64,000 nucleotides of DNA from Spirochaetota bacterium (GCA_031549085.1 JAVBQL010000018.1:13917-77916), one strand, 5' to 3'; positions 32,169-64,000 are shown, numbered from the stretch's first letter. Notes: generated by a model from the letters alone, not told the origin. Numbers and translations are program-made.

Positions 32169-33146
32169 ATGAGTTTTTCAGCTTTACAGGATTTTATTAG
32201 AGTAAGACGTGGTCGTAAAGATTTAACTTCTACTAGCTGTAAAAATGTTAGGTTATACTTTGCAGACGGAACTTCACAAAAGATTCCCGTGGCTTGTTAT
32301 CTATATATTTTAGAGACAAGAGAAACCGATCTATCTATGCAGTACACTTATGGAGTTGTAGAGAAGATAGTCAGAAGGTCAAAAAATGTTAGCCGTGTTT
32401 TGCTTGCTGGCGGTGTTTCTGTTAGAGTCTACACTACACCAGCTTTACAGGTAGGTTCTTTTGTCAAGACAATTCCTGTTAAGGTAAAACAATCTAAAAA
32501 AGATTATGTTTTTTATAGAACTCATGCTGAAGTGAATTATCATAGAGAATATAAAATTATTGAATCTGTTATGGCAAGGAAACTTAAAAATTTCAGATTG
32601 CCTAAACATTTAACTATACAAGATTTAGCAATGGAGTATTTCAAATATCTTTATAAAAATAACGCATTTCTACGTTATCAAACCAGATCCTACTTAATAG
32701 TTGCTACAAACAATTGGATTAAGAATTTTATAAAATCTAGGGTTGTAAAAGAAGTAGATGTTACCCGTTCTCTCAACGACTTGGTTGGAGATGAAGGAGA
32801 TCAAATTGAATATATCGATAGATTACAGTATTCAAGTGCCTCTCAAGACCATATGGCAGACTGTCATATGAGCAATCTTGAGACAGCTGAATATTTAAAG
32901 TTTATTAGAGAAAAATTAAAAAAACAAGATTCTATACCTGCTTTAGAAGGAAATGGTAAAAACTTAAAAAGTATAACTTTTTCAGAGTTATTTGAACTTC
33001 TATATGAAAAAGAGACAATTGATTCTATAGCTAAAAAGATAGGTTATGGGGTTACTGCAGTAAGGACAGTGGTAAAAGAATTGCATACTTACTTAAAAAG
33101 AGTAACGGAAACTTGCTATGGCTACAAAGAACTTATGGCTAATTGA
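32169..33146 (+). CDS. putative transcriptional regulator with C-terminal sigma-70 region-4-like HTH
   Basis: C-terminus ...ETIDSIAKKIGYGVTAVRTVVKELHTYLKR resembles a region-4 / LuxR-type HTH. First gene of the same-strand block. Confidence 0.35.
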   Translation: MSFSALQDFIRVRRGRKDLTSTSCKNVRLYFADGTSQKIPVACYLYILETRETDLSMQYTYGVVEKIVRRSKNVSRVLLAGGVSVRVYTTPALQVGSFVKTIPVKVKQSKKDYVFYRTHAEVNYHREYKIIESVMARKLKNFRLPKHLTIQDLAMEYFKYLYKNNAFLRYQTRSYLIVATNNWIKNFIKSRVVKEVDVTRSLNDLVGDEGDQIEYIDRLQYSSASQDHMADCHMSNLETAEYLKFIREKLKKQDSIPALEGNGKNLKSITFSELFELLYEKETIDSIAKKIGYGVTAVRTVVKELHTYLKRVTETCYGYKELMAN

Positions 33147-33459
33147 TAAACCTCCTCTGGATCAGAGGCTAGTTGTGGTGCATTCAGGTAATTTTCTGGA
33201 CATCTATAATCAGTATTATGGAGGCAGTTTTGGTAAACTTCAGTTATTGGTTCATTCTAATTTAAGAATAGAAAACCTCTTAAAGTTTGTAGAAGACTAT
33301 GAGGATGACCTAGAGGTTTTTGTTTTGGGTTTTGTTACTCTCACTTTTATTTCAAGATTTACCCGAGTAGAAAATCTACGGAAGTATCAGTTGCAAGATA
33401 TTAAGATTGAGTCTGAAAATCAGATTTTGTTAAATGAAATTAAGAAATATTGTAAATAA
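33118..33459 (+). CDS. hypothetical protein
   Basis: 113-aa ORF, no motif. Confidence 0.3.
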   Translation: MATKNLWLIDKPPLDQRLVVVHSGNFLDIYNQYYGGSFGKLQLLVHSNLRIENLLKFVEDYEDDLEVFVLGFVTLTFISRFTRVENLRKYQLQDIKIESENQILLNEIKKYCK

Positions 33460-33502
33460 GCTTTAGAATTATGTCATATCTATTTATATGGTTGTTTAAA
33501 GA

Positions 33503-33527
33503 CATCTCTGAAAGTTTTTCAGAGATG
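33503..33527 (+). other. perfect 9-bp hairpin (CATCTCTGA / TCAGAGATG)
   Basis: Seen directly. Lies immediately 5' of the terminator at 33533. Confidence 0.5.
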
Positions 33528-33532
33528 CTTTA

Positions 33533-33572
33533 CTAAAGTAGGTCAATTGTTAATTTACCTACTTTAGTTTTT
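33533..33572 (+). terminator. intrinsic terminator
   Basis: 11-bp perfect stem CTAAAGTAGGT/ACCTACTTTAG, 13-nt loop, followed by TTTTT. Confidence 0.6.
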
Positions 33573-33590
33573 AAATTATTAGGAGTAGCT

Positions 33591-34402: not shown

Positions 34403-34403
34403 A

Positions 34404-35732: not shown

Positions 35733-35741
35733 GAGTTTTCA

Positions 35742-36284
35742 ATGGTTAAGGTCTTTATAGATCCAGCCTACTTTTCTACTGGTCTTTTCATTTTAAATGA
35801 GAAGACCAGTAAGTTTTCTTTTGATGCAGTAGTCTGTGAGGGAGACTCTCTAAAGAGCTATGAAAACTATCTACACAAGGCAGACATAGTCTCTAATATG
35901 GTAGTAAAGAGAATAGCTCACTATAATCCAATTGAGGTGTATGTTGAAATACCCCCTCCAATAGGTCATACATCTGCGGGGTTATATGGGCTATCCTTTT
36001 TATTAGTAACACGATTAAAATCACAAGGTTATAGGGTTTTTGCAATTCCCACACAGCTAGTTTACAACTTTCAAAAGAAATACTATCAATCCAAAAAACA
36101 TAAAGACAGACTATATATTGCTTTAGATCTTTTTAAACAACAGCGGATTTTAAATAACGGTATCACTTTTGATGGTATTATGCACTTAGAAAATAACATA
36201 GATACTGCGACAGCCTATCTATTTTATGTCTTTAGTAATGAGCGAATAAAGACAGATAAGAAGTTTAAGTTAAAGGAGATATAA
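35742..36284 (+). CDS. RuvC-like Holliday-junction resolvase
   Basis: N-terminal VFIDPAYFSTG (compare RuvC ILGIDPGSRVTG), central YVEIPP (Glu), later DRLYIALD acidic pair. Confidence 0.45.
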   Translation: MVKVFIDPAYFSTGLFILNEKTSKFSFDAVVCEGDSLKSYENYLHKADIVSNMVVKRIAHYNPIEVYVEIPPPIGHTSAGLYGLSFLLVTRLKSQGYRVFAIPTQLVYNFQKKYYQSKKHKDRLYIALDLFKQQRILNNGITFDGIMHLENNIDTATAYLFYVFSNERIKTDKKFKLKEI

Positions 36285-37405
36285 TGAGCAACGATTTTTT
36301 CTCAAGTTATGAGAATGAGGTATCTACTGAAGATCTTTATATTAAAACAAATTACTTACCTTTTGATTTAGTTACTGGAGGTAAGGGGCTACCGCTAGGG
36401 GGATTTACACATCTTTATGGAGGCAATGGTTTGGGTAAAACTACCCTGCTCTATACTGTAGTTAAGAATTTAGTTATCAGAGGAGAGGGAGTTTTATGGG
36501 TAGGAGCGGAGAATACCAAAGAACTTGCTAATTCAATGGGGCTTTATGGTGAGGAGTCTTTTTTAAAAAAGCCAGAATACAGCCATTTAAAAGATAAATT
36601 TCGATATCTAGATGCTGGATTTTATACCGAGCTGGAGGAAATTTCAAGAGAGTTTATTAAGTCACCCTACAGGGTTATGGTTATAGACTCTATGACTGCG
36701 TTTTGTGCCTCACCAGAGACAATAAAAGAGAAAGGTATTGAAGATGTCCTTGTTGGACTGGATGCAAGAATTCAAACACAGTACTTTAAGCTCTATGCTA
36801 ATCTTTTAAAATCTACTAAAAAATCTATTATCTTTGTTACGCAATCTAGAGCTGATATAGGGGGAAGATCCTTTGGTTTTACCGCACCACAAGATAAGCC
36901 CGCTACAGGAAATGCTGGTTTGTTTTATTCCATATTGAGAGTTCTTTTACAGGGGGATGCTACTCTAAAAGCAAGCGATATGGGTCAGCAAGGGGATCAT
37001 CAGGTTGGTAAGACAGGTTGGCTCAAAGCGGAAAAGAACAGAATGGCTCTACCTTTTGTTAGGCTACCAGTATTTATTCTTTTTGGTAAGGGAGCAAGTA
37101 ATATTCAAGCTCTGCGGTCCTATATGGAAGCTATGAGCTACTTTAAATCTGCAGGATCAAGATTTCAAATCAGTTTTAAGGGGACTGAAGTATCAGTTGC
37201 TGGTCGTAAGGGACTGCTAGATTGGATTAGCAATAACATGGATGCACTTATGGAAGATGTCTATGAGAACATTTCGGCTTACTACAACATACTCTCTCTG
37301 GGGGCTTTTAAGAACATAAAGGGACAAGCTCCAATGGTCGCTACTAGTGAAGTGCAGATAGAAGTTCCTAGTAGCTCTATTTTAGAAGATAAAAAGGAAG
37401 CTTAA
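36284..37405 (+). CDS. RecA-superfamily recombinase/ATPase (UvsX/RadA/Sak4-like)
   Basis: Walker A GGNGLGKTT, Walker B-like VMVIDSMTA, RecA-core-like SIIFVTQSRADIGG...GN.AGLFYSILRV. Confidence 0.55.
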   Translation: MSNDFFSSYENEVSTEDLYIKTNYLPFDLVTGGKGLPLGGFTHLYGGNGLGKTTLLYTVVKNLVIRGEGVLWVGAENTKELANSMGLYGEESFLKKPEYSHLKDKFRYLDAGFYTELEEISREFIKSPYRVMVIDSMTAFCASPETIKEKGIEDVLVGLDARIQTQYFKLYANLLKSTKKSIIFVTQSRADIGGRSFGFTAPQDKPATGNAGLFYSILRVLLQGDATLKASDMGQQGDHQVGKTGWLKAEKNRMALPFVRLPVFILFGKGASNIQALRSYMEAMSYFKSAGSRFQISFKGTEVSVAGRKGLLDWISNNMDALMEDVYENISAYYNILSLGAFKNIKGQAPMVATSEVQIEVPSSSILEDKKEA

Positions 37406-40717: not shown

Positions 40718-41065
40718 ATGGACTCTAATAAAAAGAAAGCTGATGTAGTTGCTAATCTTGAGGTTTTTCAGACATTGATTAGTGATAGAACATCAAAAAT
40801 AGAGAGTTCTTCTGATTATGCAAATTCTAATTCACTTTTAGAATTTCAACAAGATTTAGGTAATTTTAGCTTAATAGATTTCATTGAGTTGCTGTGTAAA
40901 TGGCTATATGAGTTTAGAGAGGAGTTCTCTTCAAGTAATGTGGATTTGCTTTTTAGCTTTTTAATACAGAGAGCTAGAGAGTATAAGATGTCAGATGACT
41001 TATTCACAATGGTTTTAAGAACCTTTGATTTGTTATATTTCTATGATGGAGAGGCAGATAAGTAA
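40718..41065 (+). CDS. hypothetical protein
   Basis: 115-aa ORF. Confidence 0.3.
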   Translation: MDSNKKKADVVANLEVFQTLISDRTSKIESSSDYANSNSLLEFQQDLGNFSLIDFIELLCKWLYEFREEFSSSNVDLLFSFLIQRAREYKMSDDLFTMVLRTFDLLYFYDGEADK

Positions 41066-42053
41066 AGTGAAAAAAACTAAACTAAGATTTGATTGGAATG
41101 GAGATAATATTTTAGATAGAAAAACTATATTTTTGAATTGGTTGCATAGTAAATCTTCATACAAGTACAAAAGGTATTTGGGATCTCCTTTGAGATATGG
41201 TGGTGGAAAATCTTTAGCAGTTGGAAATATTATTGAGCTTTTACCAGAAAAAATAACAAAAGTTGTCAGTCCATTTATTGGTGGAGGTTCTGTTGAAATT
41301 GCAATTGCTAAAGAACTTGCTATACCAGTAATTGCTTATGATGTTTTTGATATGTTAGTTAACTATTGGCAAATACAAATTAGTAATCCTCAAGGATTAT
41401 ATGAATTTTTAACAAATCTCAAACCAACAAATGAAGAGTATGACAGAGTAAAGAAAGAACTTTCAAATCATTGGAATAAAAAAGATGGGTATTTAGGTGG
41501 ACTTGACGATTTGGAGAGAGCAGCGTACTATTTTTTTAATCATAATTTATCATATGGTCCTGGATTTTTAGGTTGGATGTCTTCTATATACAAAAATGAA
41601 AAAAGATATATTAGTATGATTGAAAAAGTGAGAGATTTCAAAATAGACAATATGCAAGTTTTTTGTGAAAATTTTGAGAATTCTATTTCTAAACATAATG
41701 AAGATTTTCTTTATTTAGATCCGCCATATTTTTTGGATGGAGATAGTAGGATGTTTAAAGGAATTTATCCTATGAGAAACTTTCCAATACATCATAACAA
41801 GTTTAGACACGATGTTTTGGCTGAATTACTAAAAAAACATAGAGGTGGCTTTATATTATCTTATAATGATTGTAGTTATGTGAGAGAAGCTTATAGAGAT
41901 TTCAATATTGTTGAGGTAGAGTGGCAGTATACAATGGGACAGGGAGAGACTCGCATTGGTAAAAACAGATTAGAACGTGAGTATGATAATGGGAATGTAA
42001 AATCATCACACGAACTATTAATTATAGGAGAAATAAAAAATGAAAATCTCTGA
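41025..42053 (+). CDS. dam: Dam-family N6-adenine DNA methyltransferase (D12 class), orphan
   Basis: Motifs YGGGKS (compare WAGGK), SPFIGGGSVEI, YLDPPYF (DPPY), about 45-aa N-terminal extension. No adjacent endonuclease. Confidence 0.8.
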   Translation: MICYISMMERQISKVKKTKLRFDWNGDNILDRKTIFLNWLHSKSSYKYKRYLGSPLRYGGGKSLAVGNIIELLPEKITKVVSPFIGGGSVEIAIAKELAIPVIAYDVFDMLVNYWQIQISNPQGLYEFLTNLKPTNEEYDRVKKELSNHWNKKDGYLGGLDDLERAAYYFFNHNLSYGPGFLGWMSSIYKNEKRYISMIEKVRDFKIDNMQVFCENFENSISKHNEDFLYLDPPYFLDGDSRMFKGIYPMRNFPIHHNKFRHDVLAELLKKHRGGFILSYNDCSYVREAYRDFNIVEVEWQYTMGQGETRIGKNRLEREYDNGNVKSSHELLIIGEIKNENL

Positions 42054-50919: not shown

Positions 50920-51243
50920 TTGGCAAAGAAAGTTAGACATAATACAGCAAAGAAAGTTCATAAAAATGATACTCCGCTTAAGGATAGTTTAACAGATGAT
51001 AGTGAGGTAGTAACTATACGCTATCGTTTTCTGGTCTTAGAAGACATCTCTTTTATGCCAGAAGAGTTCAGAGTTCTTTTTTATGGTAGAGTCTTTTTAA
51101 AGAAGGGTCTCTACTATTTTCATTTTAAGTTTACGCAATTATGGTATGAGCGTTTAATACAGCGATTTATAAAAGATAGTTTTTATAAAAAAAGAATTAT
51201 AGCAAAAGTTGAACAAGGCTTAATGGAGGATATTGATGGCTAA
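50920..51243 (+). CDS. hypothetical protein with basic N-terminus
   Basis: 107-aa ORF. Confidence 0.3.
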   Translation: MAKKVRHNTAKKVHKNDTPLKDSLTDDSEVVTIRYRFLVLEDISFMPEEFRVLFYGRVFLKKGLYYFHFKFTQLWYERLIQRFIKDSFYKKRIIAKVEQGLMEDIDG

Positions 51244-51589
51244 AAAAGTAAGTGTTAATGTTATCGGGGAGAGAGTTTTTTTACAGCTTATAGAAGATAA
51301 GGCTGAAGTTCAGTCTGATGGAGGAGTTCTCACTGGCTCTATCCAAGTTGATAAGAGGTACACAGGGAGGGTTTTAGGTGTAGGAGATGCTTTAGTAGAT
51401 AAAGCACTCCCTTTTGGTATAGGCTCTATTGTTGTTTATGATAAGTTCGGGGGACAAAAGATTTCATTTGATTACACTAATCAATATCTAATAGTTAGGT
51501 TAGATGAAATCTTAGGAGTTATTTCTTATACAGAAACAGAAGATAAATCTAAAATAATTCAGACAGAAAGTGAGTTATTTACGGGGTAG
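51233..51589 (+). CDS. GroES/cpn10-family co-chaperonin (phage gp31-like)
   Basis: Aligns along its length with GroES: VNVIGERVFLQLIEDKAEVQSDGGVLTGS...RVLGVGDAL......GSIVVYDKFGGQKI......YLIVRLDEILGVI. Confidence 0.65.
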   Translation: MMAKKVSVNVIGERVFLQLIEDKAEVQSDGGVLTGSIQVDKRYTGRVLGVGDALVDKALPFGIGSIVVYDKFGGQKISFDYTNQYLIVRLDEILGVISYTETEDKSKIIQTESELFTG

Positions 51590-51590
51590 T

Positions 51591-52514
51591 ATGCAAAATT
51601 TAGCACAGAAATATAGACCTAAACTTCTAAAAGATATTTATGGCCAAAAAGAGGTAGTACAATACTTTCAATCAGTTGTTCGTAAGACAGATTTAGCTTG
51701 CAGGAACTATGTTGTTTTGGGAGCTTATGGCTGTGGTAAAACAACACTAGTTAGGGCTTTTGCTAATGAGCTAATAGGAACTAATAATTGTCAAGGGCAT
51801 CCTAACTATCTTGAACTTGATAGCTCCGAGATATTTTCTAAGAAAGATTTTTCTATTTTAAAGGATTTAATATTTCAATATCAAAATGGTTGGAGAGTAG
51901 TTGTTTTTGATGAAGTACATCTGCTTCCTAGAGAGGTTCAAGGTCAACTTCTAAAAATGATAGAAGAGTCAGAGGAAAGAATCTTTTTCTTTTTTCTCTC
52001 TACAGAACGAGAGGGCATTTTAGATACTATAGTTTCAAGATCATTAGATTTTAATCTTTCTACTTTTACTCATGATCAAGTTATAAACTATTTGGATAAT
52101 ATTCTACAAAAAGAAAATATTACAATCTCAAATGAGTGTAAAGAGATGATAGCTCTAAAAGTTAATGGACATCTTCGAGACGCTATAATGCAACTAGACT
52201 TAATTAAAATATCTGGGGAGTCTTTTTATGTTAGCAACTATGTAAATCTTATGGGTTTATGGGCTAACTATTTCAAAGAGATGGATAGAGTCATTATAGA
52301 TGAGCTTATTAAAAATCCTGTGCCTATTTTAAGAGATACTTTAGATCGCTTTATACTAAATGAACTTATACGCAGAAAGCAAATTTTCACAGATGTTGTT
52401 TTTGTAAAATTTTACTCTACCTATTTAAAAATGAAAAAGAACATCAATACGGATAATGATTTCTTTTGTTTTCTTTATATACTGCTTGATTTTATTAAGA
52501 CATTAAGGAATTAA
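51591..52514 (+). CDS. AAA+ clamp-loader subunit (DnaX/gp44/RFC-like)
   Basis: KYRPK box at the N-terminus (internal start at 51591), Walker A GAYGCGKTT, Walker B VVFDEVHLL, sensor-1-like TIVSRS. Confidence 0.65.
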   Translation: MQNLAQKYRPKLLKDIYGQKEVVQYFQSVVRKTDLACRNYVVLGAYGCGKTTLVRAFANELIGTNNCQGHPNYLELDSSEIFSKKDFSILKDLIFQYQNGWRVVVFDEVHLLPREVQGQLLKMIEESEERIFFFFLSTEREGILDTIVSRSLDFNLSTFTHDQVINYLDNILQKENITISNECKEMIALKVNGHLRDAIMQLDLIKISGESFYVSNYVNLMGLWANYFKEMDRVIIDELIKNPVPILRDTLDRFILNELIRRKQIFTDVVFVKFYSTYLKMKKNINTDNDFFCFLYILLDFIKTLRN

Positions 52515-52521
52515 TTTTGTT

Positions 52522-52977
52522 ATGAAGAATGATTTAAATCACTATTTTAGAAATGGATTAACAGAAGATTTCTTTATTGAGCTTAAGAGGTTTGTCTCTT
52601 ACCTACATAAAAGATATAATCTGGGGGTAAGATTTGATGACTTTTATCAGAGAGTATATGATAAGACAATAGATTTTTATATGTCTGGCAAATGGGATGA
52701 GAGCAGAGGGAGTGTTGCTACCTATATCTATTATATAGCTAGGAATGAGTCATCAAATTTAAAATCTAAAGGTAAAAAGCAAGCAGATTTAAATGATCAG
52801 ATTGTACAAAAAGAGTATAAGAGTATAAAAGACAACGATAGCTATCAGAGATTTATACTCTATGCCAAGCGTTTGGGTATCAAAATAGAAGAGAATGAGT
52901 TTGTTAATAATCTGCATGAGCAGGTGTTAACTCCTATTGTTAAATGTTTTTTATGGAAGACTTACTTGGGGGCTTGA
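52522..52977 (+). CDS. sigma-70 region-2-like factor (phage late/ECF-like sigma)
   Basis: DFYQRVYDKTIDFYMSGKWDESRGSVATYIYYIARNE matches the region 2.1-2.4 pattern (D..Q..F.K.........F..WL..IA.N). Only region 2 is present, as in T4 gp55. Confidence 0.5.
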   Translation: MKNDLNHYFRNGLTEDFFIELKRFVSYLHKRYNLGVRFDDFYQRVYDKTIDFYMSGKWDESRGSVATYIYYIARNESSNLKSKGKKQADLNDQIVQKEYKSIKDNDSYQRFILYAKRLGIKIEENEFVNNLHEQVLTPIVKCFLWKTYLGA

Positions 52978-53389: not shown

Positions 53390-53429
53390 TACTTTATTTG
53401 AATAACACATTACTTTGATTACTTGCTAA

Positions 53430-53463
53430 AAGAACTTGTCTTACTAAGACAGGTTCTTTTTTT
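53430..53463 (+). terminator. intrinsic terminator
   Basis: AAGAACTTGTC-ttactaa-GACAGGTTCTT (one G-U pair) followed by T7. Confidence 0.6.
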
Positions 53464-53484: not shown

Positions 53485-53868
53485 ATGGTGTTTGGAGATA
53501 AAGCTGTTCAATTAGTAGAACAGAATTTAGATGTTTTATCTAGGGTTACAAATGCTTTAGTTGAACAATTAGAAGTTCCAGAGAATATTAGTAATCCCAA
53601 ATTCTTGTTAGAAGTACATGATACTTTAACAAGAAACTCAACAGCTATTTTGGAGTCAGTTAGAAAGTTAGCTATTACAGATAACAAACTATTTTCCAAT
53701 GGTGTTCTTACTAACACATCAATAGTTACAGTATCAGATGGAGTTATTGGTGAGATAGATCAGGCATCTGTTAATAACTCAAAGTTTGGGAGTGATAATG
53801 CTGTTGTAGAGGCAACTCCTAGCACAGAAGTAACTTCTGAAACTAAAGAGGGAAAGAAAGTTAGTTAA
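53485..53868 (+). CDS. possible small terminase subunit
   Basis: 127 aa. Position immediately 5' of TerL, with the stop overlapping the TerL start (TAATAATG). Confidence 0.3.
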   Translation: MVFGDKAVQLVEQNLDVLSRVTNALVEQLEVPENISNPKFLLEVHDTLTRNSTAILESVRKLAITDNKLFSNGVLTNTSIVTVSDGVIGEIDQASVNNSKFGSDNAVVEATPSTEVTSETKEGKKVS

Positions 53869-53870: not shown

Positions 53871-55682
53871 ATGAAAAACTTGAGACTTAAGCGACCCATA
53901 CTTCCTATAGAAGAGTGGATCAATGATCCTTATTATGTTGGTAAAGAGGTAGACTCTATTTATCCTTTTTGGAAAGAGAGGACAATAGAGTTTTTCAATT
54001 CTAAATATAATAAGTTTATAGGTTATGGCTCTTATCGTTTGGGTAAGGGACATGTAATGGGTTGCTTATGGCTCTTCAGGATTCTATATGAAATTAGTTG
54101 CTGTGAAAATTTTTTAGAACAATTTCATCTCTCTCCATCTACTAAACTCAAGTTTGCATTTATCTCATTTTCAAAAGACAAGGCTAGATCTACAGGTTTA
54201 GATAAAATGATTAGAATGATAGATTCTATTCCCTATTTCAATGAGGTATGTCCACGCAATAAAAATCTAAAGTCTAAAATAGATTTAGGTTTTGCAGAGA
54301 TTTATTGTGCTAGTAATGTCTCACATCTCACTGGGGAAGATCTATACGGTGTTATCTTTGATGAGGCAGATTTTGTTAAGTCCGCCGCAGGTGAAGAGTA
54401 TGAGAAAGCAAAAGAGATATTTTTGGAAGCTCAAATCAGAGGTCATGCCACCTATTCCATAGGGGGTAAGCATTATGGTTTTTATGGTCTCTTGTCATCT
54501 GCTCAATATGAGACTTCTTTTACTGAGCAACAATTAAAGTCTGCGGAAGAGAACGATGATGCCTATGTAGTTAAAGCATCCGTTTTTGAGGTTAAACCTT
54601 GGTCTTTTGCAAAAGAGAAGTTTAGGGTATTTTTAGGAGCTGGGGAGATACCACCTTTTATTTTAGATGAAGAGCAAGATTTAAGTACAATTAAAAATCT
54701 TATAAATACTACGTATGGAATAACGTTTGATCAGTTTATTAAAAACTATGAGAATAGAATTAAGTTAGTTCCAGTAGATTTAAAGCCCTATTTTGTCAAT
54801 GACATATCTTATGCAATTAAAACTTTAGTTGGTGAACCTATCCGAAGATCTGGACTATTTCTTAAAAATCACACACTACTTCATAAAGCTTATTTTTTGG
54901 GTTTAAAGTCCCCTTTGTTAGTTGAAGTTCCTCAACTATCTCTTTTTGGATCAGAGGTTATTCAAGATTTTGTAAATGAGGATATCCTATTAGATAACTA
55001 CGAAGCTGGGCAGAGGGTCTACATTCACATTGACCAATCCAAATCTGGAGATAGAACAGGCTTTGGTGCTTTTTTTAAAACATCGTCTGGTCGTATTAGA
55101 TCCCTACTCTATATGGCAATCTACTATGATGATTCAAGAAAAGAGATTGATATTTCAAAAGTTGAAGACATAGTTTATTGGTTTATAGATTTAGGAATTC
55201 CTATAGGTAAACTTACCTATGATCAGTATGCTAGTATCTATGCTAGCCAGTCTCTTAAAAAGAGAGTGGGTAGAGAGAAAGTCGAAACACAATCAGTTGA
55301 TAAAGATGATACTCAATATATGGTTTTTCTATTTTTACTTAAAAAGGGTTTGATAGATATGTACAGGTATCTGCCATTCGAGAAGGAACTATTCACACTT
55401 GAACATGATGCTTATCAGAACAAAGTTTTAAAAGCAAAAGATGGTTCAGATGATGTTAGCCAAGCAGTTGTTGGGGCTATCTATAATCTTTTTCAAAAAG
55501 ATGGAATGTCTAGGGATGAATTGGTTTACACATCTTTAAATAAAGAAGAGGTCATAGATGACTTCTATCTGTCTGCTTTAGCAGATGCAAGCGTAGATAC
55601 CTACTACGATGATTTATTAGTGGATGAGAAAGAGATAGATGCAGAGTATGATTTAATGTCTGGTTTATTAGACAGTGACTAA
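53871..55682 (+). CDS. terminase large subunit (TerL)
   Basis: Walker A-like GYGSYRLGKGHVMG, Walker B VIFDEADF, C-terminal RNase-H-like nuclease acidic residues (HIDQSKSGDRTGF...DGSDDVSQA). Confidence 0.7.
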   Translation: MKNLRLKRPILPIEEWINDPYYVGKEVDSIYPFWKERTIEFFNSKYNKFIGYGSYRLGKGHVMGCLWLFRILYEISCCENFLEQFHLSPSTKLKFAFISFSKDKARSTGLDKMIRMIDSIPYFNEVCPRNKNLKSKIDLGFAEIYCASNVSHLTGEDLYGVIFDEADFVKSAAGEEYEKAKEIFLEAQIRGHATYSIGGKHYGFYGLLSSAQYETSFTEQQLKSAEENDDAYVVKASVFEVKPWSFAKEKFRVFLGAGEIPPFILDEEQDLSTIKNLINTTYGITFDQFIKNYENRIKLVPVDLKPYFVNDISYAIKTLVGEPIRRSGLFLKNHTLLHKAYFLGLKSPLLVEVPQLSLFGSEVIQDFVNEDILLDNYEAGQRVYIHIDQSKSGDRTGFGAFFKTSSGRIRSLLYMAIYYDDSRKEIDISKVEDIVYWFIDLGIPIGKLTYDQYASIYASQSLKKRVGREKVETQSVDKDDTQYMVFLFLLKKGLIDMYRYLPFEKELFTLEHDAYQNKVLKAKDGSDDVSQAVVGAIYNLFQKDGMSRDELVYTSLNKEEVIDDFYLSALADASVDTYYDDLLVDEKEIDAEYDLMSGLLDSD

Positions 55683-55726: not shown

Positions 55727-58700
55727 TTGTCGGAGTTTGTAATGAATACAGCTGGAAAGATTCAATCAAATTTAAATTATCCTGCAGACTATGAAGATAG
55801 TGGGTTATTTAAATATAGTGCTCTTATGCGAGAAGCTCAAAAGATAGCAAAACTCTATGGTTATAGAGAGGATGGATATTATCATGAGGGTGACGATTTA
55901 GCTATTCATTTTAAAGGTGAAACTTTGATTGATAAAGACACTCTTTATGATATAAATAGTGAATGGGAAAGTTTAGTCAATAATTTTGGAGAAGTTAACT
56001 TTTATCCCAATGAGGAAAACCCTAGTGAGTCATCAAGCCTTGTTTTTTACTATTTTGTATACAGTCACTTACTAATTGAGCGAGAAGCAAGAGATGATGA
56101 GGTTAATTCTAGTAAGAATACTAAATCTGTTAAGAGCAATAGTTTTAATTCCAATGAAGATTTCTTAGAGTGGTTTAATAAATCAACAGATGAGGATATG
56201 GATTTCAAGCCTTCTACTGAAATGAGTGTTTTTGTGGAGGGTGAGGAATTTAGTTCTCCCCAAGAAGCAAAAGATATCATTGATGAATTATTAGATGTTG
56301 AATTAGACGAATCTGAAAATAAAGTTTTAGATGAGGCTCTTGTAGATAATCCTATTGTAGAAGATATTTTAATTGAAGATGATTCTATAACTATTACTTT
56401 TACAGAGGATGTTATAAATCAAGATTATCATAGGTTTAAAAAAATTGATATAGATCAATACATGCTCTTTTCTGAAAAAAATCTTAATATCAATATTGAA
56501 GGTAAGATAATAAATTTTTCTGGTAGCAACAGCAATTCAGAGTCAGATTTTTTATATAGGGCTATTCTTAATCAATCTTATCAAGAGTATCAAAAACAGG
56601 GACATCCCTTATTGTCAGATAGCCTAGAACCTTTAAGAAATATAATCAAATATAATCTTTTAAAACGATATAGTTCTATTTTCAGGGATTGCAATACCCC
56701 AATCAGGTGTGAGTCAGAAGACGAACATTTAAAAGATAAAGCTGTTAATGAGTTTATGAATACTCATAATGAGTACCCTGATTCATCAGATGACTGGCAA
56801 GAGGTCGCTCAAATAATGGGCAGGATGAAAGAGGAAGCTGGTGTAGTTACTAGTGACAATAATGAGCCTGCAACACAAGAGGAGATTACAGAAGAGCCAG
56901 CATTCTTTGAAGGGACTCTTACAGAAGAGATCCCCGATGAAGAGAACTCATTGGTATCTTGGATCAATCAATCTGCTTATCATGGTTTTTTGTTTGAAGA
57001 GTCTTATAATGAGTTTATGTCATTTAAACAAAGAATTCCATCTACCAAAAATGATTTTAACTATTTAGTTTTTAAGTCATCTCTTAAATTAAATGACTTC
57101 AAAAAAAATCCAAGACGGGATTTTATTGTGGAGTCTAATTTCATAAATCTCTACTGGCATAATATAATCTTATCAAGATACTTTTTAGGTAAAGAGGGGC
57201 AAGTAAAAGGCATTTTTTCACATTGGAAAAATAAGTCACCCGATCATACTATTGCGTGGATGGAAGCGGAAAATAAATTTAAACTCTTAAATAATCAAGA
57301 GCCAGAGACATCAAGAGATTGGGCAGTTGTTACCTCAACTGCTAAAAAGTATATTGACAGAGTTGTAGAGACTAATTCAGTTGTATCAATGCCTAATATA
57401 GCTCATTTAGGAATTATTGAAGAGAGCAAAAAACTACAAACATCTCTATATCAGGTTATTGGAGTTAATAAAGATGAATCAGGCAAGAAGCATGAATATA
57501 TCATAGATTGTGTTAGAACAAAATCAGAAGCGGATATGTATGAGCCAATGTATAAAAACCAATATTCAGAGGGCATTATAATAAAAGAGCATAAGCATTT
57601 TGGTTTTGGTTTAGACTTAATGGAAGAACTCGTTTCAAGTTTTGACATTAGAAAAAGTTTAGTTTCAAAAAAGAGACAGGTGTTAAGCCAGCTATCTTTA
57701 AGTCTTTTGGGAGATAGCAAGTTTAAGGTTATTAGCAGTATCTTGAGTTTTGTAAAATATTTAAATAAACCTTTGATGAAAAAGTTAGTCAATAACTATT
57801 CTATTGTAATGTCTAGAGTTCTCAAAAATCTACTGGGTAGTAATATTAAATCGTTTTTAACTTTAAGGGACTATCCTTTGATAAACAGACGAGTGGTATC
57901 TGGTCTGTTTATCAATAACTCTTTTACTCTTCATACAGAAGAGGACTTTGATGTTACACAAGCAGACACTTTTACAAAGTGGCTCAATAAGAACTCTGAT
58001 AGTTTTGTATCTCAATATGTAGATAAATTTACGAGGCTTACAGGTAAGACACATCCAACAACTACTGAGGAGTTTATTAGTATTCTTAAATCGGCTGGCT
58101 CTCTTATTTCGGAGGATCTAGAGACTTCTTTTAGAATTCTACCTTTAGGAGAGGTTGAGGCTGAAAAACTAGAGTCCACTTTCTATTCAGATAATTTCTT
58201 AAGGGTCTATAATTATAATCTTCATTCCTTGATGTCAGCAAAAGCTTTTATTAGAACAGAGGCAGATTTAAAGGATTCTAAAAAAGAGACTATTGGATGG
58301 TGGCTTGCTAGTACAGATGAGAATGTAGCTTTTAATACTTTAGATAGCTGGCAAAGTTGGAATGATGGTGCCTTGCCATCTACTTCAGATGAGTTAGTAA
58401 GATTTTTATTATTAGGTAATAGTCATCTTTTTGGTAACGAGGAATTGTTAAATATTTTTAAAGAGTTACCAGATGGCTCAAGCTGGGGTGAAGGTCAGTC
58501 TGTTATTGATGCTTTTAGTAATAGCTCTATTGAAGAAGATGAGGATGATGACAAAGATGATGTAGGTTTTAAAGAGCTTGCAGTGGCTCAATGTGAAAAA
58601 ATTCGTAAATCTAACTTTAATGATAGATTAGTTGAATATCAAGATACTTATAAAATAGCTTTTCAGAGTGATACAAGTAGAGAAGTTAAATCAAGGGCTT

Positions 58701-59995
58701 TACGTATTTTTGGGTCAACTGCTCTTAGGTCTTATTATAGAGCAACAAACTCTGCTTATAAATGGGATACCCCGATGAGTGAGTTATCTGATAATTTACA
58801 GTATGTTATGGGTGTTTATTATGATCTTGAAGCAATTAGTCAAACTGTGGATTTTGATGATTTTCAAAAGGCTTTAGATAAAAAGAGGGTAAAAAAATTA
58901 ACACAGGAAGAGGCTGATTATTTAGAAGATGCTAACTGGCATACCTTATTAAGGTATCTGGGGAAGATGGGTTTAGCATCAAGTCTAAAAAAGCATAATC
59001 TAAAGAATTCTATTGAAGGATACATTGGTGGTTTTAAAATTATTAAATCATCCTCTTTTAAAGTAGGAACACTTCCTGATGCAATGGTAAAAAATTTTCA
59101 AGAGAAGAGTTTTGAAGATTATTCATCTGCAAGGCGTTATCTTTTAGATTCAATTCAAAGTTATATAAAATATATAAAGACTAATACAAACAAGTTTAGT
59201 GATCCACATTCTTTGCAGGCTCGTTTAGAGTTAGAAGAAGAATTTTGGTCTAAGCAGGCTGAAGGAATTAGAAGTAATAAAAATAATATAAAATCACATG
59301 AGAAAAAAACTTGTGGGTCATGTATTCATAGAGATCCAGAGGATGGCCAATGTTTTGTAGACTCTTACGGTTTGAAAGTTGATGCTGATGATGAGGATAT
59401 TTGTGATTATTATAACGGGGAGTCTGATTGGATAAAAAAACGTTTTCCTAGAGATAATTCTAATTCAACTTCTAGTGGCAAGTCTTATAGGGTTATAGGA
59501 ATTAAAAATAATAAAAAGATAGTTATAACACAATCTAAAAATAAAGACTTAGTGAATAGAGTAGCTAGTAAGCATAGAAGCAGTGGCATATATTCTGAAG
59601 TCATTATAGAGAGTGGTAATGAGGTAACCAAATATAACGGAGGTAATACTCAAACAGATTTATCTAATTTAGAAGGATATCTCTCTTGGTTACAGATTTT
59701 TATAGGAGATATTCATAACGGATTATATAGAATGAAACCTCGTGATAGAACTGTAGGTTTTAAGCAGGTTCTTAATTTTTTGGATGAGATGTATAAAAAG
59801 ACTATGGATATTGTTAATCGTTATGGAAATGAATCTAACCAAGGGGAGTTGGGACAAATAGTAAGACTTATAAAGAATGCAAAATCCTCTATTACAAACT
59901 TTTTTGAAGATCCTATTGACGATGAGGCAACTTATTCAGATGTCTTTAGTTATTTAAGCAAGATATTAGAAATAGCAGAATCTTTAGGTGAGTAA
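55727..59995 (+). CDS. very large virion-associated protein (1422 aa); portal-containing fusion or polyvalent structural protein?
   Basis: Position directly after TerL. Acidic, coiled-coil-rich, C-terminal Cys cluster (CGSCIHRDPEDGQCF...ICDYY). No motif assignable by eye. Confidence 0.35.
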   Translation: MSEFVMNTAGKIQSNLNYPADYEDSGLFKYSALMREAQKIAKLYGYREDGYYHEGDDLAIHFKGETLIDKDTLYDINSEWESLVNNFGEVNFYPNEENPSESSSLVFYYFVYSHLLIEREARDDEVNSSKNTKSVKSNSFNSNEDFLEWFNKSTDEDMDFKPSTEMSVFVEGEEFSSPQEAKDIIDELLDVELDESENKVLDEALVDNPIVEDILIEDDSITITFTEDVINQDYHRFKKIDIDQYMLFSEKNLNINIEGKIINFSGSNSNSESDFLYRAILNQSYQEYQKQGHPLLSDSLEPLRNIIKYNLLKRYSSIFRDCNTPIRCESEDEHLKDKAVNEFMNTHNEYPDSSDDWQEVAQIMGRMKEEAGVVTSDNNEPATQEEITEEPAFFEGTLTEEIPDEENSLVSWINQSAYHGFLFEESYNEFMSFKQRIPSTKNDFNYLVFKSSLKLNDFKKNPRRDFIVESNFINLYWHNIILSRYFLGKEGQVKGIFSHWKNKSPDHTIAWMEAENKFKLLNNQEPETSRDWAVVTSTAKKYIDRVVETNSVVSMPNIAHLGIIEESKKLQTSLYQVIGVNKDESGKKHEYIIDCVRTKSEADMYEPMYKNQYSEGIIIKEHKHFGFGLDLMEELVSSFDIRKSLVSKKRQVLSQLSLSLLGDSKFKVISSILSFVKYLNKPLMKKLVNNYSIVMSRVLKNLLGSNIKSFLTLRDYPLINRRVVSGLFINNSFTLHTEEDFDVTQADTFTKWLNKNSDSFVSQYVDKFTRLTGKTHPTTTEEFISILKSAGSLISEDLETSFRILPLGEVEAEKLESTFYSDNFLRVYNYNLHSLMSAKAFIRTEADLKDSKKETIGWWLASTDENVAFNTLDSWQSWNDGALPSTSDELVRFLLLGNSHLFGNEELLNIFKELPDGSSWGEGQSVIDAFSNSSIEEDEDDDKDDVGFKELAVAQCEKIRKSNFNDRLVEYQDTYKIAFQSDTSREVKSRALRIFGSTALRSYYRATNSAYKWDTPMSELSDNLQYVMGVYYDLEAISQTVDFDDFQKALDKKRVKKLTQEEADYLEDANWHTLLRYLGKMGLASSLKKHNLKNSIEGYIGGFKIIKSSSFKVGTLPDAMVKNFQEKSFEDYSSARRYLLDSIQSYIKYIKTNTNKFSDPHSLQARLELEEEFWSKQAEGIRSNKNNIKSHEKKTCGSCIHRDPEDGQCFVDSYGLKVDADDEDICDYYNGESDWIKKRFPRDNSNSTSSGKSYRVIGIKNNKKIVITQSKNKDLVNRVASKHRSSGIYSEVIIESGNEVTKYNGGNTQTDLSNLEGYLSWLQIFIGDIHNGLYRMKPRDRTVGFKQVLNFLDEMYKKTMDIVNRYGNESNQGELGQIVRLIKNAKSSITNFFEDPIDDEATYSDVFSYLSKILEIAESLGE

Positions 59996-60019
59996 TTTAA
60001 ATTAAAAGGAGTCAGAATT

Positions 60020-62263
60020 ATGTATAATCCAAATAATAGTATTAAATCAACTAGAGTAGATACAGATTTCGGGAACTTTGAGGCTATAGGAAATTTAGTA
60101 CAAGATCAGCCTCTATTTGTAATTAAAGTATGGCAAGGTAGTGGTTATGTTATTGAAAGATTTATTGTGAATGCTACTTCGGAAGAGGAAGCACTTGAGA
60201 AGACTTTTAATTTTATAAAGGGTAATACACATTATAAAAACCTTGATCAGACAGAACTTGCTTGGAAGGAAGAGCTGGATGAAGGAGATGAGTCGTCTTT
60301 TTTTACTCTTGATGGAGGATTTTATGTTTGGGCTGAAAATCTTGCAGTTGTAGAAGTATCTTGGGATAAATGGCAATCCATACAACCAAGTGGTAAAAGT
60401 TCTAATTTAAAAGAGCTTAGTAGTAGTAAAAACCTTAAGTCAGGTGAAAATATAAAAGAAGTCTATAAACAAATAGAGCAATTTTTTAGAGCTCCTGTAG
60501 GAGTTGTAGACAGTGTTGTTTTTGATGGCTCTGATGAAGATATGAGCCGTTTTAATGTCTCTTTACAAAAATACGCAAGCTGGAATAATGACAATAGAGA
60601 ACTTTCAGATGAGTGGTATAATAGATTTAAAAATAGAATTAAGTCATCTTTAACTAAGCCTAGTCTTTTTATGAAAGGTTCACGGGTAGTAAAAAAATCA
60701 GCTTTAGAATCAATTAAAAAGTTTGTTGTGTCTGAAAACATTAATCAGGCTAAATTTGAAAAAGGTAATAAAGTAAAATTTAGAGACACTTTATCTAAAA
60801 AATTTGGGGATGCTATAGGCAAGATTACTGAACTTATAGATAAAGCAAAGGGTTTATTTCAAGTTACTTGGGACGATGGAACAACATCTACCGAGGTTGA
60901 CTATGATTTAGTAATGGCGTCTAAATTCTTTAAACTTAATTCTAACGATGAAATAGAAACTATTTTTGATAATAATCAAGATAACATACTTGAAGGAGGA
61001 ACTAATGAAGATATCAATAATTTCAACGAAGGTGAAGATATCACTGGGATAATGGCTTTAGATATCAATAATGTAGATGCTTTATTAATATCACCATCAC
61101 AATTTATTGGAGAGGAAGGTAGCAACGGTGATTGTTTTGTTAATATATCTATAATGACAGGAGATAGCGAAGATCCATCAGTTTTAGTAGCAGATACCTC
61201 AATTTCTGCCTATATCCCTTTATCAACTTTAGATGAATGGGGCGTTGATTCAGGCGAAGTAAAACTAATAGATAATATAGAAGAAATACGAGATGTTTTA
61301 GAAACTGTGAAGGACACTGATGATTATTCTGTATCTACTTCTAATATAGTTATCAACAAAATCCTCTACCCTAAAAACTCTAACAATGCTTATAAGATAT
61401 TTAATAGCAAGTTTGGTCTTATAGCTCTAAAATGTAAAAAAATAGGCAGTTCAAAAAATATCAAACCAAAAGATACTAATAGCAGTAATTCTCTCAAATC
61501 ATCATCTTTTAAAACTGATAAAGAAGCTATAAAGATAGCAGAAAAGGTTTTGAATGCTTTTTTCAATAGGGATGACTTCAGATGGTGTGGTTCTTTTGAG
61601 GAGGAGGATGAGTGGCATACTTCTTTCGTAGTTAAAAATGCTTTTGATCTTAATGACCTACCTCGATTTAATGAACTTTGGAAAAAAGAGGGGGGGATTA
61701 GGGTATATAAAGGCTATACAGATACAGAAATTATCTTTGTTTGCAATATGCCTAATGATTTTGTTTTGTCCAATAAATCTTTCACATCAAATGATATGAC
61801 CTTTTTCAAAAAAATGGATTCTAACTACTATCTGTCTGCGGATGGATTTAAGGTTAAATCCTCTCATTTAACAAAGCTAGGCTACCCTAAATATATCGTG
61901 ATGGCGTCAGACTTTAAAAAGAGTTTTGCAGAAAAGACTACTCTCAAGTTAGGAGATTTTGAGAAAGTGCTATCTGAAAAACTTGATAAATCTATAGTTT
62001 CTAGACTGGTTAAATGCATTAAATTACAAAGTGAAAAAATTAAGTCCTTGCAGTCTAATAGGAACAATATATTTCAAGGAAAGGTTGAACAAACTAATCA
62101 ATTACTAGCAGAGATTGAAAGGCTTAAAAAGGATAACTTTAAACTTAATCAGTCTTTAGTAAAAACTCAAAGTTTTATTGGCAGTAAGAAATCATTAAAA
62201 CTTGGTTTATCAGAATATAAAGATGATTCAAATAAAAAGAGTGATGATGAGTCTATATTCTAG
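60020..62263 (+). CDS. structural/morphogenesis protein (747 aa) with C-terminal coiled coil
   Basis: C-terminal heptads (LLAEIERLKKDNFKLNQSL). Position in the late module. Confidence 0.3.
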   Translation: MYNPNNSIKSTRVDTDFGNFEAIGNLVQDQPLFVIKVWQGSGYVIERFIVNATSEEEALEKTFNFIKGNTHYKNLDQTELAWKEELDEGDESSFFTLDGGFYVWAENLAVVEVSWDKWQSIQPSGKSSNLKELSSSKNLKSGENIKEVYKQIEQFFRAPVGVVDSVVFDGSDEDMSRFNVSLQKYASWNNDNRELSDEWYNRFKNRIKSSLTKPSLFMKGSRVVKKSALESIKKFVVSENINQAKFEKGNKVKFRDTLSKKFGDAIGKITELIDKAKGLFQVTWDDGTTSTEVDYDLVMASKFFKLNSNDEIETIFDNNQDNILEGGTNEDINNFNEGEDITGIMALDINNVDALLISPSQFIGEEGSNGDCFVNISIMTGDSEDPSVLVADTSISAYIPLSTLDEWGVDSGEVKLIDNIEEIRDVLETVKDTDDYSVSTSNIVINKILYPKNSNNAYKIFNSKFGLIALKCKKIGSSKNIKPKDTNSSNSLKSSSFKTDKEAIKIAEKVLNAFFNRDDFRWCGSFEEEDEWHTSFVVKNAFDLNDLPRFNELWKKEGGIRVYKGYTDTEIIFVCNMPNDFVLSNKSFTSNDMTFFKKMDSNYYLSADGFKVKSSHLTKLGYPKYIVMASDFKKSFAEKTTLKLGDFEKVLSEKLDKSIVSRLVKCIKLQSEKIKSLQSNRNNIFQGKVEQTNQLLAEIERLKKDNFKLNQSLVKTQSFIGSKKSLKLGLSEYKDDSNKKSDDESIF

Positions 62264-62310
62264 TCGGGGGTTATTTTAATTGTAATTATTTTAGTTAAGG
62301 GGTTATTAGT

Positions 62311-63678
62311 ATGAGTGGGTTTATAAAAGAGATTAAAGAGGCATTAGATATAATTTCTATTAAGGGTTTTATCGAACCAGTTAGGAGTGAAAGGGGTTTA
62401 AATGAGGAGCTATTTCATTTAACTAGCAAGAATAAAAACATAGATTTAAGAGTTAATGATAATGCAGATGTTGTAATTCACTCTTTATTTAATGATGCTG
62501 TAACCATTTTGAACAGAGTTCCAACAGACTTCGTTATGCGAGTTATAATGCAGTCATTGTCATCTGGCTCTTACCATCCATCAAAAGAGATTAAGTCTTT
62601 TTTCAATAGAATCAATTTTGACCAAACTTTTTCTAATGTTGTTTTACATCCTGACTCTTTTATAAAAGAGGGTGTAATCTACACAGATTTAAATGGTAAG
62701 AAATATCTACATCAAGAGGATCATAGAATTTCTCTCTATATATGGAGAAGGCTTTTTGATCTTAATAAAGAGAATGAGATGATAACTTTCCCTAATCTAA
62801 CTTTTAGTGATGAAAAAATAGCAGTTGCTAATTCTATAAAGCTTACATCGGGCATTTCAGAGGATGATTTAGTAAGTGTAAAGTCATCTGGTTTTGGAGT
62901 TCCAGATATAATGGAGGGGTTAAATTCTTACGTTCCGATAAGAATAGGTAAAGATGATTTAAAGGAGAGTGTTAATTCATCTTTAGAGAGTAATAATCTT
63001 CAGGTAGACTTTTATGGCTTTAGTAATACTAATTTACAAAAAGCTATTCTCTTTAGCTCTATTTTTAATATTAACACAGCAAAAGACTTATATCAAAGAG
63101 CATCAGAGAGTGGCAAGGATAATACAAAGTTGGTTAAAAATAATATAGACTCTTTTGAGGTAGTCTTATTACAAGAGGGGGATAATAAATATAAACTTCA
63201 GATATCTTCTAAAAGCTTTTTCAAAGATAATTATGACACTTTCAAAGTTTCATCTTACTACATACCTGTTAATCAGCAATCCTTAGAAAAGGATTTTGCT
63301 TTTTTAGGACTTAAGAATGCAGTTGATCAAGAGTATATGAAAAAAGAGTATGCTTTCACAGGCATATCAGATTTTACTCAAAAAAAGGTTTTTTCAAAAG
63401 ATACAAAAGAGTTTGCTCTGCTTAAGGACATAGTTAACTATGGTAGTACAAAAGCAATAAGTTCTAATATTAATAAAACTCCAAAACCTCTTTTTTCATT
63501 TGTTAAGAGGTTCTTTTCTATCGTTAAGTCTGGAGCTAATGCGAGTGACTATACTATTCTGGTTATGGATACGAATGGTTTTAGAGAGGAAAAAAGTATG
63601 AGAGAATTCTTAAAGAATAATAAACTGCCAGAACTCTATACCAATTTAGATAAAATTACAATGATAGCTTTTATGTAG
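62311..63678 (+). CDS. structural protein (455 aa), capsid-module candidate
   Basis: Size and position only. Confidence 0.25.
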   Translation: MSGFIKEIKEALDIISIKGFIEPVRSERGLNEELFHLTSKNKNIDLRVNDNADVVIHSLFNDAVTILNRVPTDFVMRVIMQSLSSGSYHPSKEIKSFFNRINFDQTFSNVVLHPDSFIKEGVIYTDLNGKKYLHQEDHRISLYIWRRLFDLNKENEMITFPNLTFSDEKIAVANSIKLTSGISEDDLVSVKSSGFGVPDIMEGLNSYVPIRIGKDDLKESVNSSLESNNLQVDFYGFSNTNLQKAILFSSIFNINTAKDLYQRASESGKDNTKLVKNNIDSFEVVLLQEGDNKYKLQISSKSFFKDNYDTFKVSSYYIPVNQQSLEKDFAFLGLKNAVDQEYMKKEYAFTGISDFTQKKVFSKDTKEFALLKDIVNYGSTKAISSNINKTPKPLFSFVKRFFSIVKSGANASDYTILVMDTNGFREEKSMREFLKNNKLPELYTNLDKITMIAFM

Positions 63679-63705
63679 ACTGCTACTTTAAAGGAGATTT
63701 ACTTA

Positions 63706-64000
63706 ATGGTTGATTTTGCAACTTTTATTTTTAATAATTTAAGCAAGGTCATCTTGGATCTAAATTTTAAACTAACAAAGAGTGGTGGCCATAGCAATGA
63801 TGTTAATTTAGATATTGGAAGAGATAGTGGAAAAATAGATTTCACTCTCTTCATAGATGACACTTCAATACAAGTTAAAAAAATCTCTTTTGAGTTAGAG
63901 ACAGAGCTAGAGAAAGAGTATTCTATAGGTACTACTTTTCAAAGTCAGGTGGAGTTACTTGATCTGCTGTATATTATCTTCTCTTTATATAAAGAGGGTT
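63706..64000 (+). CDS. hypothetical protein, 3' end outside window
   Basis: ORF is open to the window end. Confidence 0.3.
   Translation, partial: MVDFATFIFNNLSKVILDLNFKLTKSGGHSNDVNLDIGRDSGKIDFTLFIDDTSIQVKKISFELETELEKEYSIGTTFQSQVELLDLLYIIFSLYKEG

Follow-up and report, generated by a model that had tools for sequence, protein, structure and literature searches.

A stretch of 64,000 nucleotides from a Spirochaetota bacterium (GCA_031549085.1, JAVBQL010000018.1:13917-77916; hereafter the window, meaning this whole length) carries chromosomal genes on its left and, from position 32169 to its right-hand end, a block of phage genes. This block is probably (at a probability of about 0.68) the left part of an integrated, apparently intact prophage that sits inside a gene for a beta-helix surface lipoprotein and derives from a lineage of large tailed phages that is uncultured and branches deeply. 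On its left side the element is bounded by housekeeping genes, a switch in codon usage at 32.15 kb and an independent assembly that runs across the junction, and it appears intact because its gene order and its three-piece Rad50 are conserved and its coding density reaches 96%. The phage lineage is previously undescribed, and its host is a low-GC (32% guanine plus cytosine) bacterium without close sequenced relatives. Of the three natures considered in the initial annotation, namely a novel prophage, a phage-plasmid junction and a decaying integration of a lytic-type phage, the novel prophage gives the best fit.

Coding Layout and Composition of the Phage Block

The interval 32169–64000 contains 41 open reading frames (ORFs), all on the plus strand, at a coding density of 96%, which bears out the dense, plus-strand-only block initially described from 32.17 kb onwards. 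Each minus-strand ORF of at least 60 amino acids (aa) in this interval is overlapped by a longer plus-strand ORF. The GC content is uniform at ~32% over the whole window, with no shift from the left to the right part. Synonymous codon usage, examined in a leave-one-out log-likelihood test, changes at ~32.15 kb: 21 of the 25 left-hand genes are host-like and 38 of the 40 right-hand genes are phage-like, and the first plus-strand gene after the junction is itself phage-like, with a log-likelihood ratio of +12.7. Tetranucleotide frequencies correlate at r=0.83 between the two halves, at 0.90–0.93 within each half and at no more than 0.78 between either half and the unrelated low-GC loci compared, a pattern which corresponds to the expectation for a phage adapted to this host.

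Chromosomal Left Flank and the Host-Phage Junction

The left 29 kb of the window is ordinary housekeeping chromosome. Genes within 1–29403 encode TilS, TatD, a TonB-dependent receptor, a WG-repeat protein, an RluD-type synthase, CysE, a PilZ protein, Hsp33, an Opp-type permease, RodZ, RimO, AroQ, UvrB, a VWA/NHL protein and an M23 peptidase, and family searches thereby agree with the chromosomal left flank recognized initially from UvrB, RimO, AroQ and a tRNA operon. That operon comprises seven tRNAs on the minus strand (29571..30149; Pro-TGG, Arg-TCT, His-GTG, Arg-TCG, Lys-CTT, Leu-TAG and Gly-GCC, predicted by ARAGORN), which are canonical bacterial tRNAs with Rfam tRNA scores of 55–73 bits and are followed by their own terminator hairpin at 29549–29568. 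A reading of the whole window as a giant phage was considered and rejected on account of the TonB receptor, Opp-type permease, RodZ, CysE, Hsp33, RimO, AroQ and UvrB in the left 29 kb.

Between the tRNA operon and the junction lies a minus-strand gene for a PhzF-family isomerase (30285..31163; TIGR00654, E=3.4e-39), which is host-like in its codons (leave-one-out log-likelihood ratio -9.1). The junction itself is flanked by the remnant of a gene for a repeat-containing (beta-helix "STIYGA") lipoprotein (31225..32139, minus strand), also host-like (-2.7) and apparently truncated at its 5' end. Among 1.84 billion representative proteins, searched exhaustively with HMMER, only two homologs of this protein were found, of 742 and 974 aa. 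The 742-aa homolog consists of a lipoprotein signal peptide, an N-terminal region of ~190 aa and then "NSTIYGA" beta-helix-like repeats. In BLASTP comparisons with this homolog, residues 8–259 of the window protein match residues 190–464, and its C-terminus matches residues 501–739, that is, the C-terminus of the homolog. The start of the window protein ("TIHNCEIVGI") corresponds to "TLDNCEITGI" at homolog residue 190, where the repeat region begins, and the alignment takes in residues whose codons precede the ATG at 32070, reaching ~32118. No signal peptide or lipobox was found in the window protein, unlike in the 742-aa homolog. The minus-strand frame remains open to 32166, and the stop that ends it shares bases with the first phage gene's ATG at 32169.

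The simplest reading of these alignments is that a host lipoprotein gene lost its 5' part to phage insertion, which would place the junction, equivalent to attL, in an unstranded interval at 32120..32168 bounded by the sequence itself, the codon switch and the end of homology at ~32118. Inside this interval, AAGGAGG at 32155–32161 forms a strong ribosome-binding site of the first phage gene, whose start codon lies only ~30–50 bp from host coding sequence. Insertion into a coding gene through a site-specific recombinase is known from temperate phages such as SPbeta, in spsM, and A118, in comK. The window element resembles both in its apparent interruption of a protein-coding gene and in the very short gap from host coding sequence to its own first gene, while their gene content is unrelated to that of the window element.

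An independent check of the join is provided by the Logan per-run assembly of SRR23967709, whose contigs were found by exact-sequence look-up. Logan contigs are identical to the window over 25435–29619 and 30018–43146, and an 18.7-kb contig over 45113–63795, where it ends, differs by one mismatch; the large terminase (TerL) and a 455-aa protein downstream of it were found only on this contig and on the deposited one. On one Logan contig, PhzF and the truncated gene are continuous with 11 kb of phage sequence. Because the independent assembly is identical across 30018–43146, the 32.15-kb junction is real DNA and not an artefact of the deposited assembly. The possibility of a mis-join, raised initially for the region between chromosome and phage, is thus largely excluded at 32.15 kb, with the tRNA array at 29619–30018 left unbridged. 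The Logan assembly also breaks within the phage block, from ~43574 to 45113, and this break as well as the single mismatch in 45113–63795 may reflect strain-level variation in a region of small ORFs.

Conserved Gene Order and Uncultured Relatives

Searches with TerL returned 91 homologs, the closest of which (41–53% identity) lie on uncultured contigs of 8–115 kb. The gene order of the window recurs on uncultured contigs of 23–115 kb, among them JGI Ga0490024_000010 (114.5 kb), LSQA01000008.1 (76.7 kb), a JGI 3300075153 contig (101.5 kb) and Logan SRR23285957_57536 (23 kb). In the neighbourhoods of four relatives (loci L093, L006 and L003 and the 101-kb JGI contig) a one-stranded core repeats the order of the window: RecA, SbcC in three pieces, SbcD, a protein of 380–470 aa, a Toprim protein, GroES, a clamp loader and a sigma-like protein of 150–190 aa, followed by two or three small ORFs, TerL, very large proteins and Portal_T4. 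The Portal_T4 (PF07230) gene lies ~4–10 kb downstream of TerL in three relatives, and the portal gene of the window element should therefore lie just beyond the window. Most small ORFs of these uncultured relatives differ from those of the window, and none of the relatives has been described or annotated. Scans of IMG/VR with TerL, as a single sequence and as a profile, and with a RecA profile found no relative.

The SbcC/Rad50-like ATPase is encoded by three plus-strand ORFs (37406–38536, 38546–38779 and 38831–39718) of 376, 77 and 295 aa, of which pieces 1 and 3 match PHROG_77 (E=3e-10 and 7e-4), and piece 1 stops 9 residues past a CxxC zinc hook ("CPLC"). The same three-gene Rad50 is present in relative L093 (2333–4739), only 37–39% identical, where the pieces measure 447, 99 and 256 aa, each stop codon overlaps the next start, and piece 1 carries "CPVC" close to its end. 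Since the arrangement is kept in a relative of such low identity, the split at the hook is, as judged from sequence conservation, a natural feature of the lineage and not a sign of decay.

Among more distant TerL relatives (25–29% identity), intein/Hint domains (PF14890, PF07591) occur within the terminase. These intein-bearing relatives are found on contigs of ~175–215 kb, some of them from human-gut samples, and suggest that big phages whose terminases contain inteins form a large clade.

Recombination and Replication Genes

Family searches support the RecA/UvsX-like ATPase, the Rad50- and Mre11-like proteins, the Toprim protein, the GroES homolog and the TerL-like large terminase that had been named in the initial annotation. 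The RecA/UvsX-like recombinase (36284..37405, plus strand) matches PF00154 (62.7 bits, E=4.9e-17) and the UvsX-like PHROG_97 (E=1.8e-20), and has phage-type relatives at 40% and 37% identity. Its closest homolog (40%) lies on small contigs together with HTH_3 (repressor-like) and HTH_17 (excisionase-like) genes, a temperate-looking context that is unrelated to the large-phage lineage. Other RecA-like relatives are located at contig ends or in unrelated small elements, and a metagenome scan with the RecA profile returned two uninformative loci. The SbcD/Mre11-like nuclease (46008..46964, plus strand; Metallophos, 59.3 bits; PHROG_100, E=2.1e-9) has an ortholog in L093.

The 180-aa protein encoded directly upstream of the recombinase (35742..36284, plus strand) had been called a RuvC-like resolvase, an assignment that was not confirmed. 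It has no match in Pfam, PHROG or the PDB, and its BLASTP comparison with Escherichia coli RuvC yields E=86. When the two proteins are aligned globally, D7, E69 and D154 of this candidate resolvase fall opposite D7, E66 and D138 of RuvC, and the fourth catalytic position (D141 in E. coli) is occupied by Thr.

Downstream of the nuclease, a stand-alone, primase-related Toprim-domain protein (48840..49472, plus strand; Toprim_2, 31.6 bits; PHROG_47 DNA primase, E=2.6e-11) has orthologs of ~40% identity in L093 and L006, and a GroES-type co-chaperonin (51233..51589, plus strand; Cpn10, 43.6 bits; PHROG_3188) is likewise present in relatives. It is followed by an AAA+ clamp loader subunit of DnaX/RFC type (51570..52514, plus strand; DNA_pol3_delta2, 50.1 bits; PHROG_5846, E=5.5e-40) that is ~40% identical to its orthologs in L006 and L093. 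The match of the loader to T4 gp44 is weak and confined to the N-terminus (E=3e-4 over 60 residues); its likeness is to DnaX/RFC in general.

The loader had initially been paired with a beta clamp, and only the loader was substantiated. The candidate for a sliding clamp is a conserved protein of 380–470 aa (47433..48839, plus strand; 468 aa in the window), whose position after genes 46/47 and before the clamp loader resembles that of T4 gp45. A 26%-identical ortholog of 380 aa occupies the same position in L093, and a gene of 386 aa does so on the 101-kb JGI contig. The protein has no match in Pfam (including DNA_pol3_beta), PHROG or the PDB; hhalign gives probabilities of 0.35% against DnaN of phage MS1 and 0.6% against T4 gp45; and a single-sequence AlphaFold model is unusable, at a predicted local distance difference test (pLDDT) score of 31. 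Its possible role as a sliding clamp is favoured by conserved position only, the size of the L093 ortholog (380 aa) being compatible with a DnaN of ~370 aa.

A small protein with likeness to sigma-70 region 2 (52522..52977, plus strand) follows the clamp loader directly, here and across the lineage (orthologs in L093, L003 and L006). The initial annotation placed a region-2-only sigma factor just before the packaging genes. This position holds, and the match itself is weak (Sigma70_r2, E=0.003, 17.7 bits, under the cut-off of 24), though three of four orthologs from related contigs match Sigma70_r2 independently. The sigma-like profile yields an hhalign probability of 0.5% against T4 gp55 and, in the PDB, only a weak match to RpoE (E=2.1); a structural model of pLDDT 67 gave no significant PDB match in a fold search.

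Packaging Module and Downstream Large Proteins

A strong intrinsic-terminator-like hairpin on the plus strand (53428..53460), with a 15-bp stem followed by a T run, divides the replication and regulation genes from the packaging genes. The 127-aa ORF directly upstream of TerL (53485..53868, plus strand) is a candidate small terminase by position only; it has no family match, and similar small ORFs precede TerL in the relatives. TerL itself (53871..55682, plus strand) was identified by tblastn, which aligns ~90% of its length at 24–25% identity with proteins annotated as large terminase in SIO-2-like Vibrio phages (E=1e-34). It has no Pfam match in the library used; its nearest homologs are 50–51% identical, and its relatives carry PF27249.

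The remainder of the window (55727..64000, plus strand) encodes proteins of 1422, 747 and 455 aa and an ORF from 63706 that is cut by the window end. None has a family match, and they are probably virion or morphogenesis proteins preceding the portal gene. At the corresponding position L006 encodes a 692-aa protein, part of which is 33% identical to the 455-aa protein over 95 residues (E=8e-14); a scan of genome contigs with the 455-aa protein gave no match. No capsid, portal or tail gene was found inside the window. Immediately behind TerL, or a few genes further on, the lineage always has a very large gene whose sequence is not conserved: it encodes 1422 aa without a recognized domain in the window (55727–59995), 1318 aa with ankyrin repeats in L006 (11605–15561) and, in L003 (21320 onwards), over 2300 aa with ART-PolyVal and NUDIX domains. 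By its domain content, this position looks like a variable "polyvalent" protein slot.

Other Features of the Block and Its Host

Most ORFs of the block lack a family match, in line with the initial remark that most of them bear no recognizable motif. The six leftmost phage ORFs (32169..35732, plus strand; 325, 113, 72, 197, 94 and 302 aa), of unknown function, match no Pfam or PHROG family and are phage-like in codon usage; the first of them, the 325-aa protein, has no homolog except itself among 5.8 billion proteins. At 90% identity the block proteins form singleton clusters, and the exact proteins are carried by one sample only. Strong ribosome-binding sites and terminators are present in the block. 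The placement of the T4 late-promoter motif TATAAATA in the window is unremarkable, and sigma-70 promoter-like sites occur there at background frequency. Near the left end, hairpins with the common motif AAAGTAGG (e.g., CTAAAGTAGGT...ACCTACTTTAG) lie in the intergenic regions 33460–33590 and 34689–34823 and may be early-region regulatory or terminator elements.

A Dam-type N6-adenine DNA methyltransferase is encoded at 41025..42053 on the plus strand (PF02086, 129.5 bits; PHROG_56, E=1.5e-38). In the region of unknown ORFs that surrounds it, three small phage ORFs (42138–42171, 43880–43913 and 44013–44046) have similar N-terminal starts, "M(S/T)(I/T)EK.ENGD", which suggests a small paralogous family. 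A WG domain may be common to host and phage within the window: the host protein at 7928–8938 is built of six WG-containing repeats (PF14903, E=9e-78), and one WG repeat (E=1e-4, under the cut-off) is present in a small phage protein at 40269–40682 (also 42154–42516).

As to the identity of the host, the best match of its UvrB (22045–24036) among 185,579 GTDB species representatives reached 59% identity, with matches in scattered phyla, in a scan limited to exact 8-residue patterns. The sole taxonomic hint comes from weak NCBIfam matches to Leptospira-named families (LIC_12708, BatA_Lepto).

Comparison With Cultured Phages

The best cultured match of TerL is to SIO-2-like Vibrio siphophages such as vB_ValS_VA-RY-4 (~80 kb). 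In these phages, as in the lineage described here, a RecA gene lies upstream of TerL and the portal gene ~10 kb downstream, all on one strand. A comparison of the window element with 75 kb of VA-RY-4 recovered TerL and, weakly, RecA (E=6e-6), and nothing else; SbcCD, the clamp loader, GroES and the sigma-like protein have no match there. The SIO-2-like Vibrio phages are described as lytic in a published account (PMC10272388).

In functional repertoire the window element parallels T4, with its uvsX-type recombinase, gp46/47-type nuclease, clamp loader, GroES analogue (gp31) and a possible counterpart of the small late sigma factor (gp55); its relatives add a portal of the Pfam family Portal_T4. 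The local order in T4 is 47-46-45-44, and the clamp candidate of the window is placed likewise; the PHROG_77 and PHROG_100 names also annotate T4 gp46 and gp47. The UvsX and SbcCD families of the window are common to many non-T4 phages, no gp62-like gene was identified in the window, and a 12-sequence TerL profile gives an hhalign probability of 0.6% against T4 gp17. The label "T4-type", attached to the block initially, can fairly be kept for the functional repertoire and partly for the order of the genes, and not for family membership, given hhalign probabilities below 1% to gp45, gp55 and gp17. The element further differs from T4 in its three-part Rad50 and in its probable integration in a chromosome. 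To our knowledge, T4-type phages are strictly virulent.

Alternative Explanations

Several points weigh against an integrated, intact prophage. No ORF of 32169–64000 matches Phage_integrase, Resolvase/Recombinase, excisionase, rve, transposase or HTH-repressor families, so that the initial statement that neither integrase nor repressor is visible holds for the 32 kb in view, and no att-like repeats were found within 28–64 kb. None of the relatives adjoins host genes within the 10-kb flanks of their loci. The truncation of the lipoprotein gene is deduced from one good homolog of a repetitive protein. With no Logan bridge over 29619–30018 inside the tRNA array, the PhzF and truncated genes are linked to the housekeeping region by the deposited 181,980-bp contig and by codon usage alone. 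Finally, RecA/UvsX-type recombinases are classically tied to virulent phages (PMC2896510).

The breaks of the independent assembly on both sides within the tRNA array (29619 and 30018) would allow another reading, in which the block belongs to a non-integrated phage of lytic type whose own left arm carries the tRNA array, PhzF and the beta-helix fragment, the deposited contig being a chimera of phage and host joined in tRNA sequence; this we regard as improbable. Large phages often carry tRNA clusters, the spacing of 29–98 bp between the minus-strand gene and the first plus-strand gene is like that of an ordinary divergent pair, and the gene set is of virulent type, with no lysogeny gene seen in the block. 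However, unitig breaks within tRNA genes are expected in any metagenome, the tRNAs here are canonical bacterial ones (55–73 bits) in an operon with its own terminator, and no tRNA genes were found in the loci of five relatives. PhzF and the repeat gene are moreover host-like in their codons, the switch occurring at 32.15 kb and not at the tRNA array, and the repeat gene lacks the N-terminal signal peptide and domain of its homolog.

A cryptic or defective remnant, that is, the left fragment of an old integration that no longer excises or makes particles, appears slightly less probable still. Its 41 ORFs are uninterrupted at 96% coding, strong ribosome-binding sites and terminators are retained, and codon usage is still unlike that of the host, hence without amelioration. 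Gene order, including the three-piece Rad50, is shared with free-looking relatives, which together with the coding density also disfavours the "decaying integration" of the initial annotation. What speaks for a remnant is that no integrase or repressor is in view, that the window ends inside the element so that its total size is not seen, and that the exact proteins occur in one sample only, as singleton clusters.

Least probable among these explanations, and in our view very unlikely, is an integration without any integrase, whether by homologous or illegitimate recombination through the phage's own RecA, Rad50-Mre11 and resolvase, by transposition, or by a phage-plasmid that recombined once into the chromosome. 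The junction does fall within coding sequence and lacks a non-coding, att-like spacer, and a full recombination toolkit lies 4–15 kb from it. Intragenic sites are, however, common for site-specific serine and tyrosine integrases, and the absence of an integrase from view, the sole positive point for this explanation, may simply mean that the recombinase lies at the unseen end. The junction is single, clean and reproduced by the independent assembly, partition or plasmid-replication genes were not found, and the left end has no DDE, rve or Mu-like genes. A Mu-like transposable phage was likewise rejected, since DDE and MuB-like genes are absent from the left end.

Proposed Integration and Replication

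Under the preferred reading of an integrated, intact prophage, integration would proceed by a site-specific recombinase encoded at the right end, beyond the window, and the lysogeny, portal, capsid, tail and lysis genes would also lie to the right of the window. Large serine recombinases have small att sites. Such an enzyme would be the most likely type of integrase here, because the insertion appears intragenic and host coding sequence comes to within only ~30–50 bp of the first start codon of the phage. After induction, the phage would replicate in a recombination-dependent manner like T4, via its RecA/UvsX, Rad50-Mre11 and resolvase, with the 180-aa protein (35742–36284) as putative junction resolvase and the 468-aa protein (47433–48839) as putative sliding clamp. 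A polymerase would be recruited by the phage-encoded clamp loader, probably together with a phage-encoded clamp. The small sigma-like protein may redirect host RNA polymerase to the late genes for packaging and morphogenesis, and GroES may aid capsid folding, as gp31 does in T4.

A bolder version can be envisaged and is put forward as speculative and rather unlikely: a genuinely temperate lineage of large phages (~65–115 kb or more) that combines a virulent-style, T4-like gene set with a naturally hook-split Rad50 and that inserts into the lipoprotein gene by an unrecognized recombinase, possibly a left-end ORFan, or by its own recombination machinery.

Significance

The element adds a deep-branching uncultured phage lineage with which cultured phages share only TerL, at ~25% identity. 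Its tie to a host chromosome provides a host assignment for otherwise orphan metagenomic phage contigs. It stands out by its virulent-style genes while integrated, by an intragenic insertion without a recombinase in the first 32 kb and by a conserved split Rad50. The three-gene division of Rad50 just after the zinc hook constitutes a natural experiment on the assembly of coiled-coil halves. If lysogeny is true, the UvsX, Rad50-Mre11, clamp-loader, GroES and sigma toolkit would reside in a prophage, and since this toolkit is usually taken as a marker of an obligately lytic lifestyle, lifestyle predictors that use such markers would be misled.

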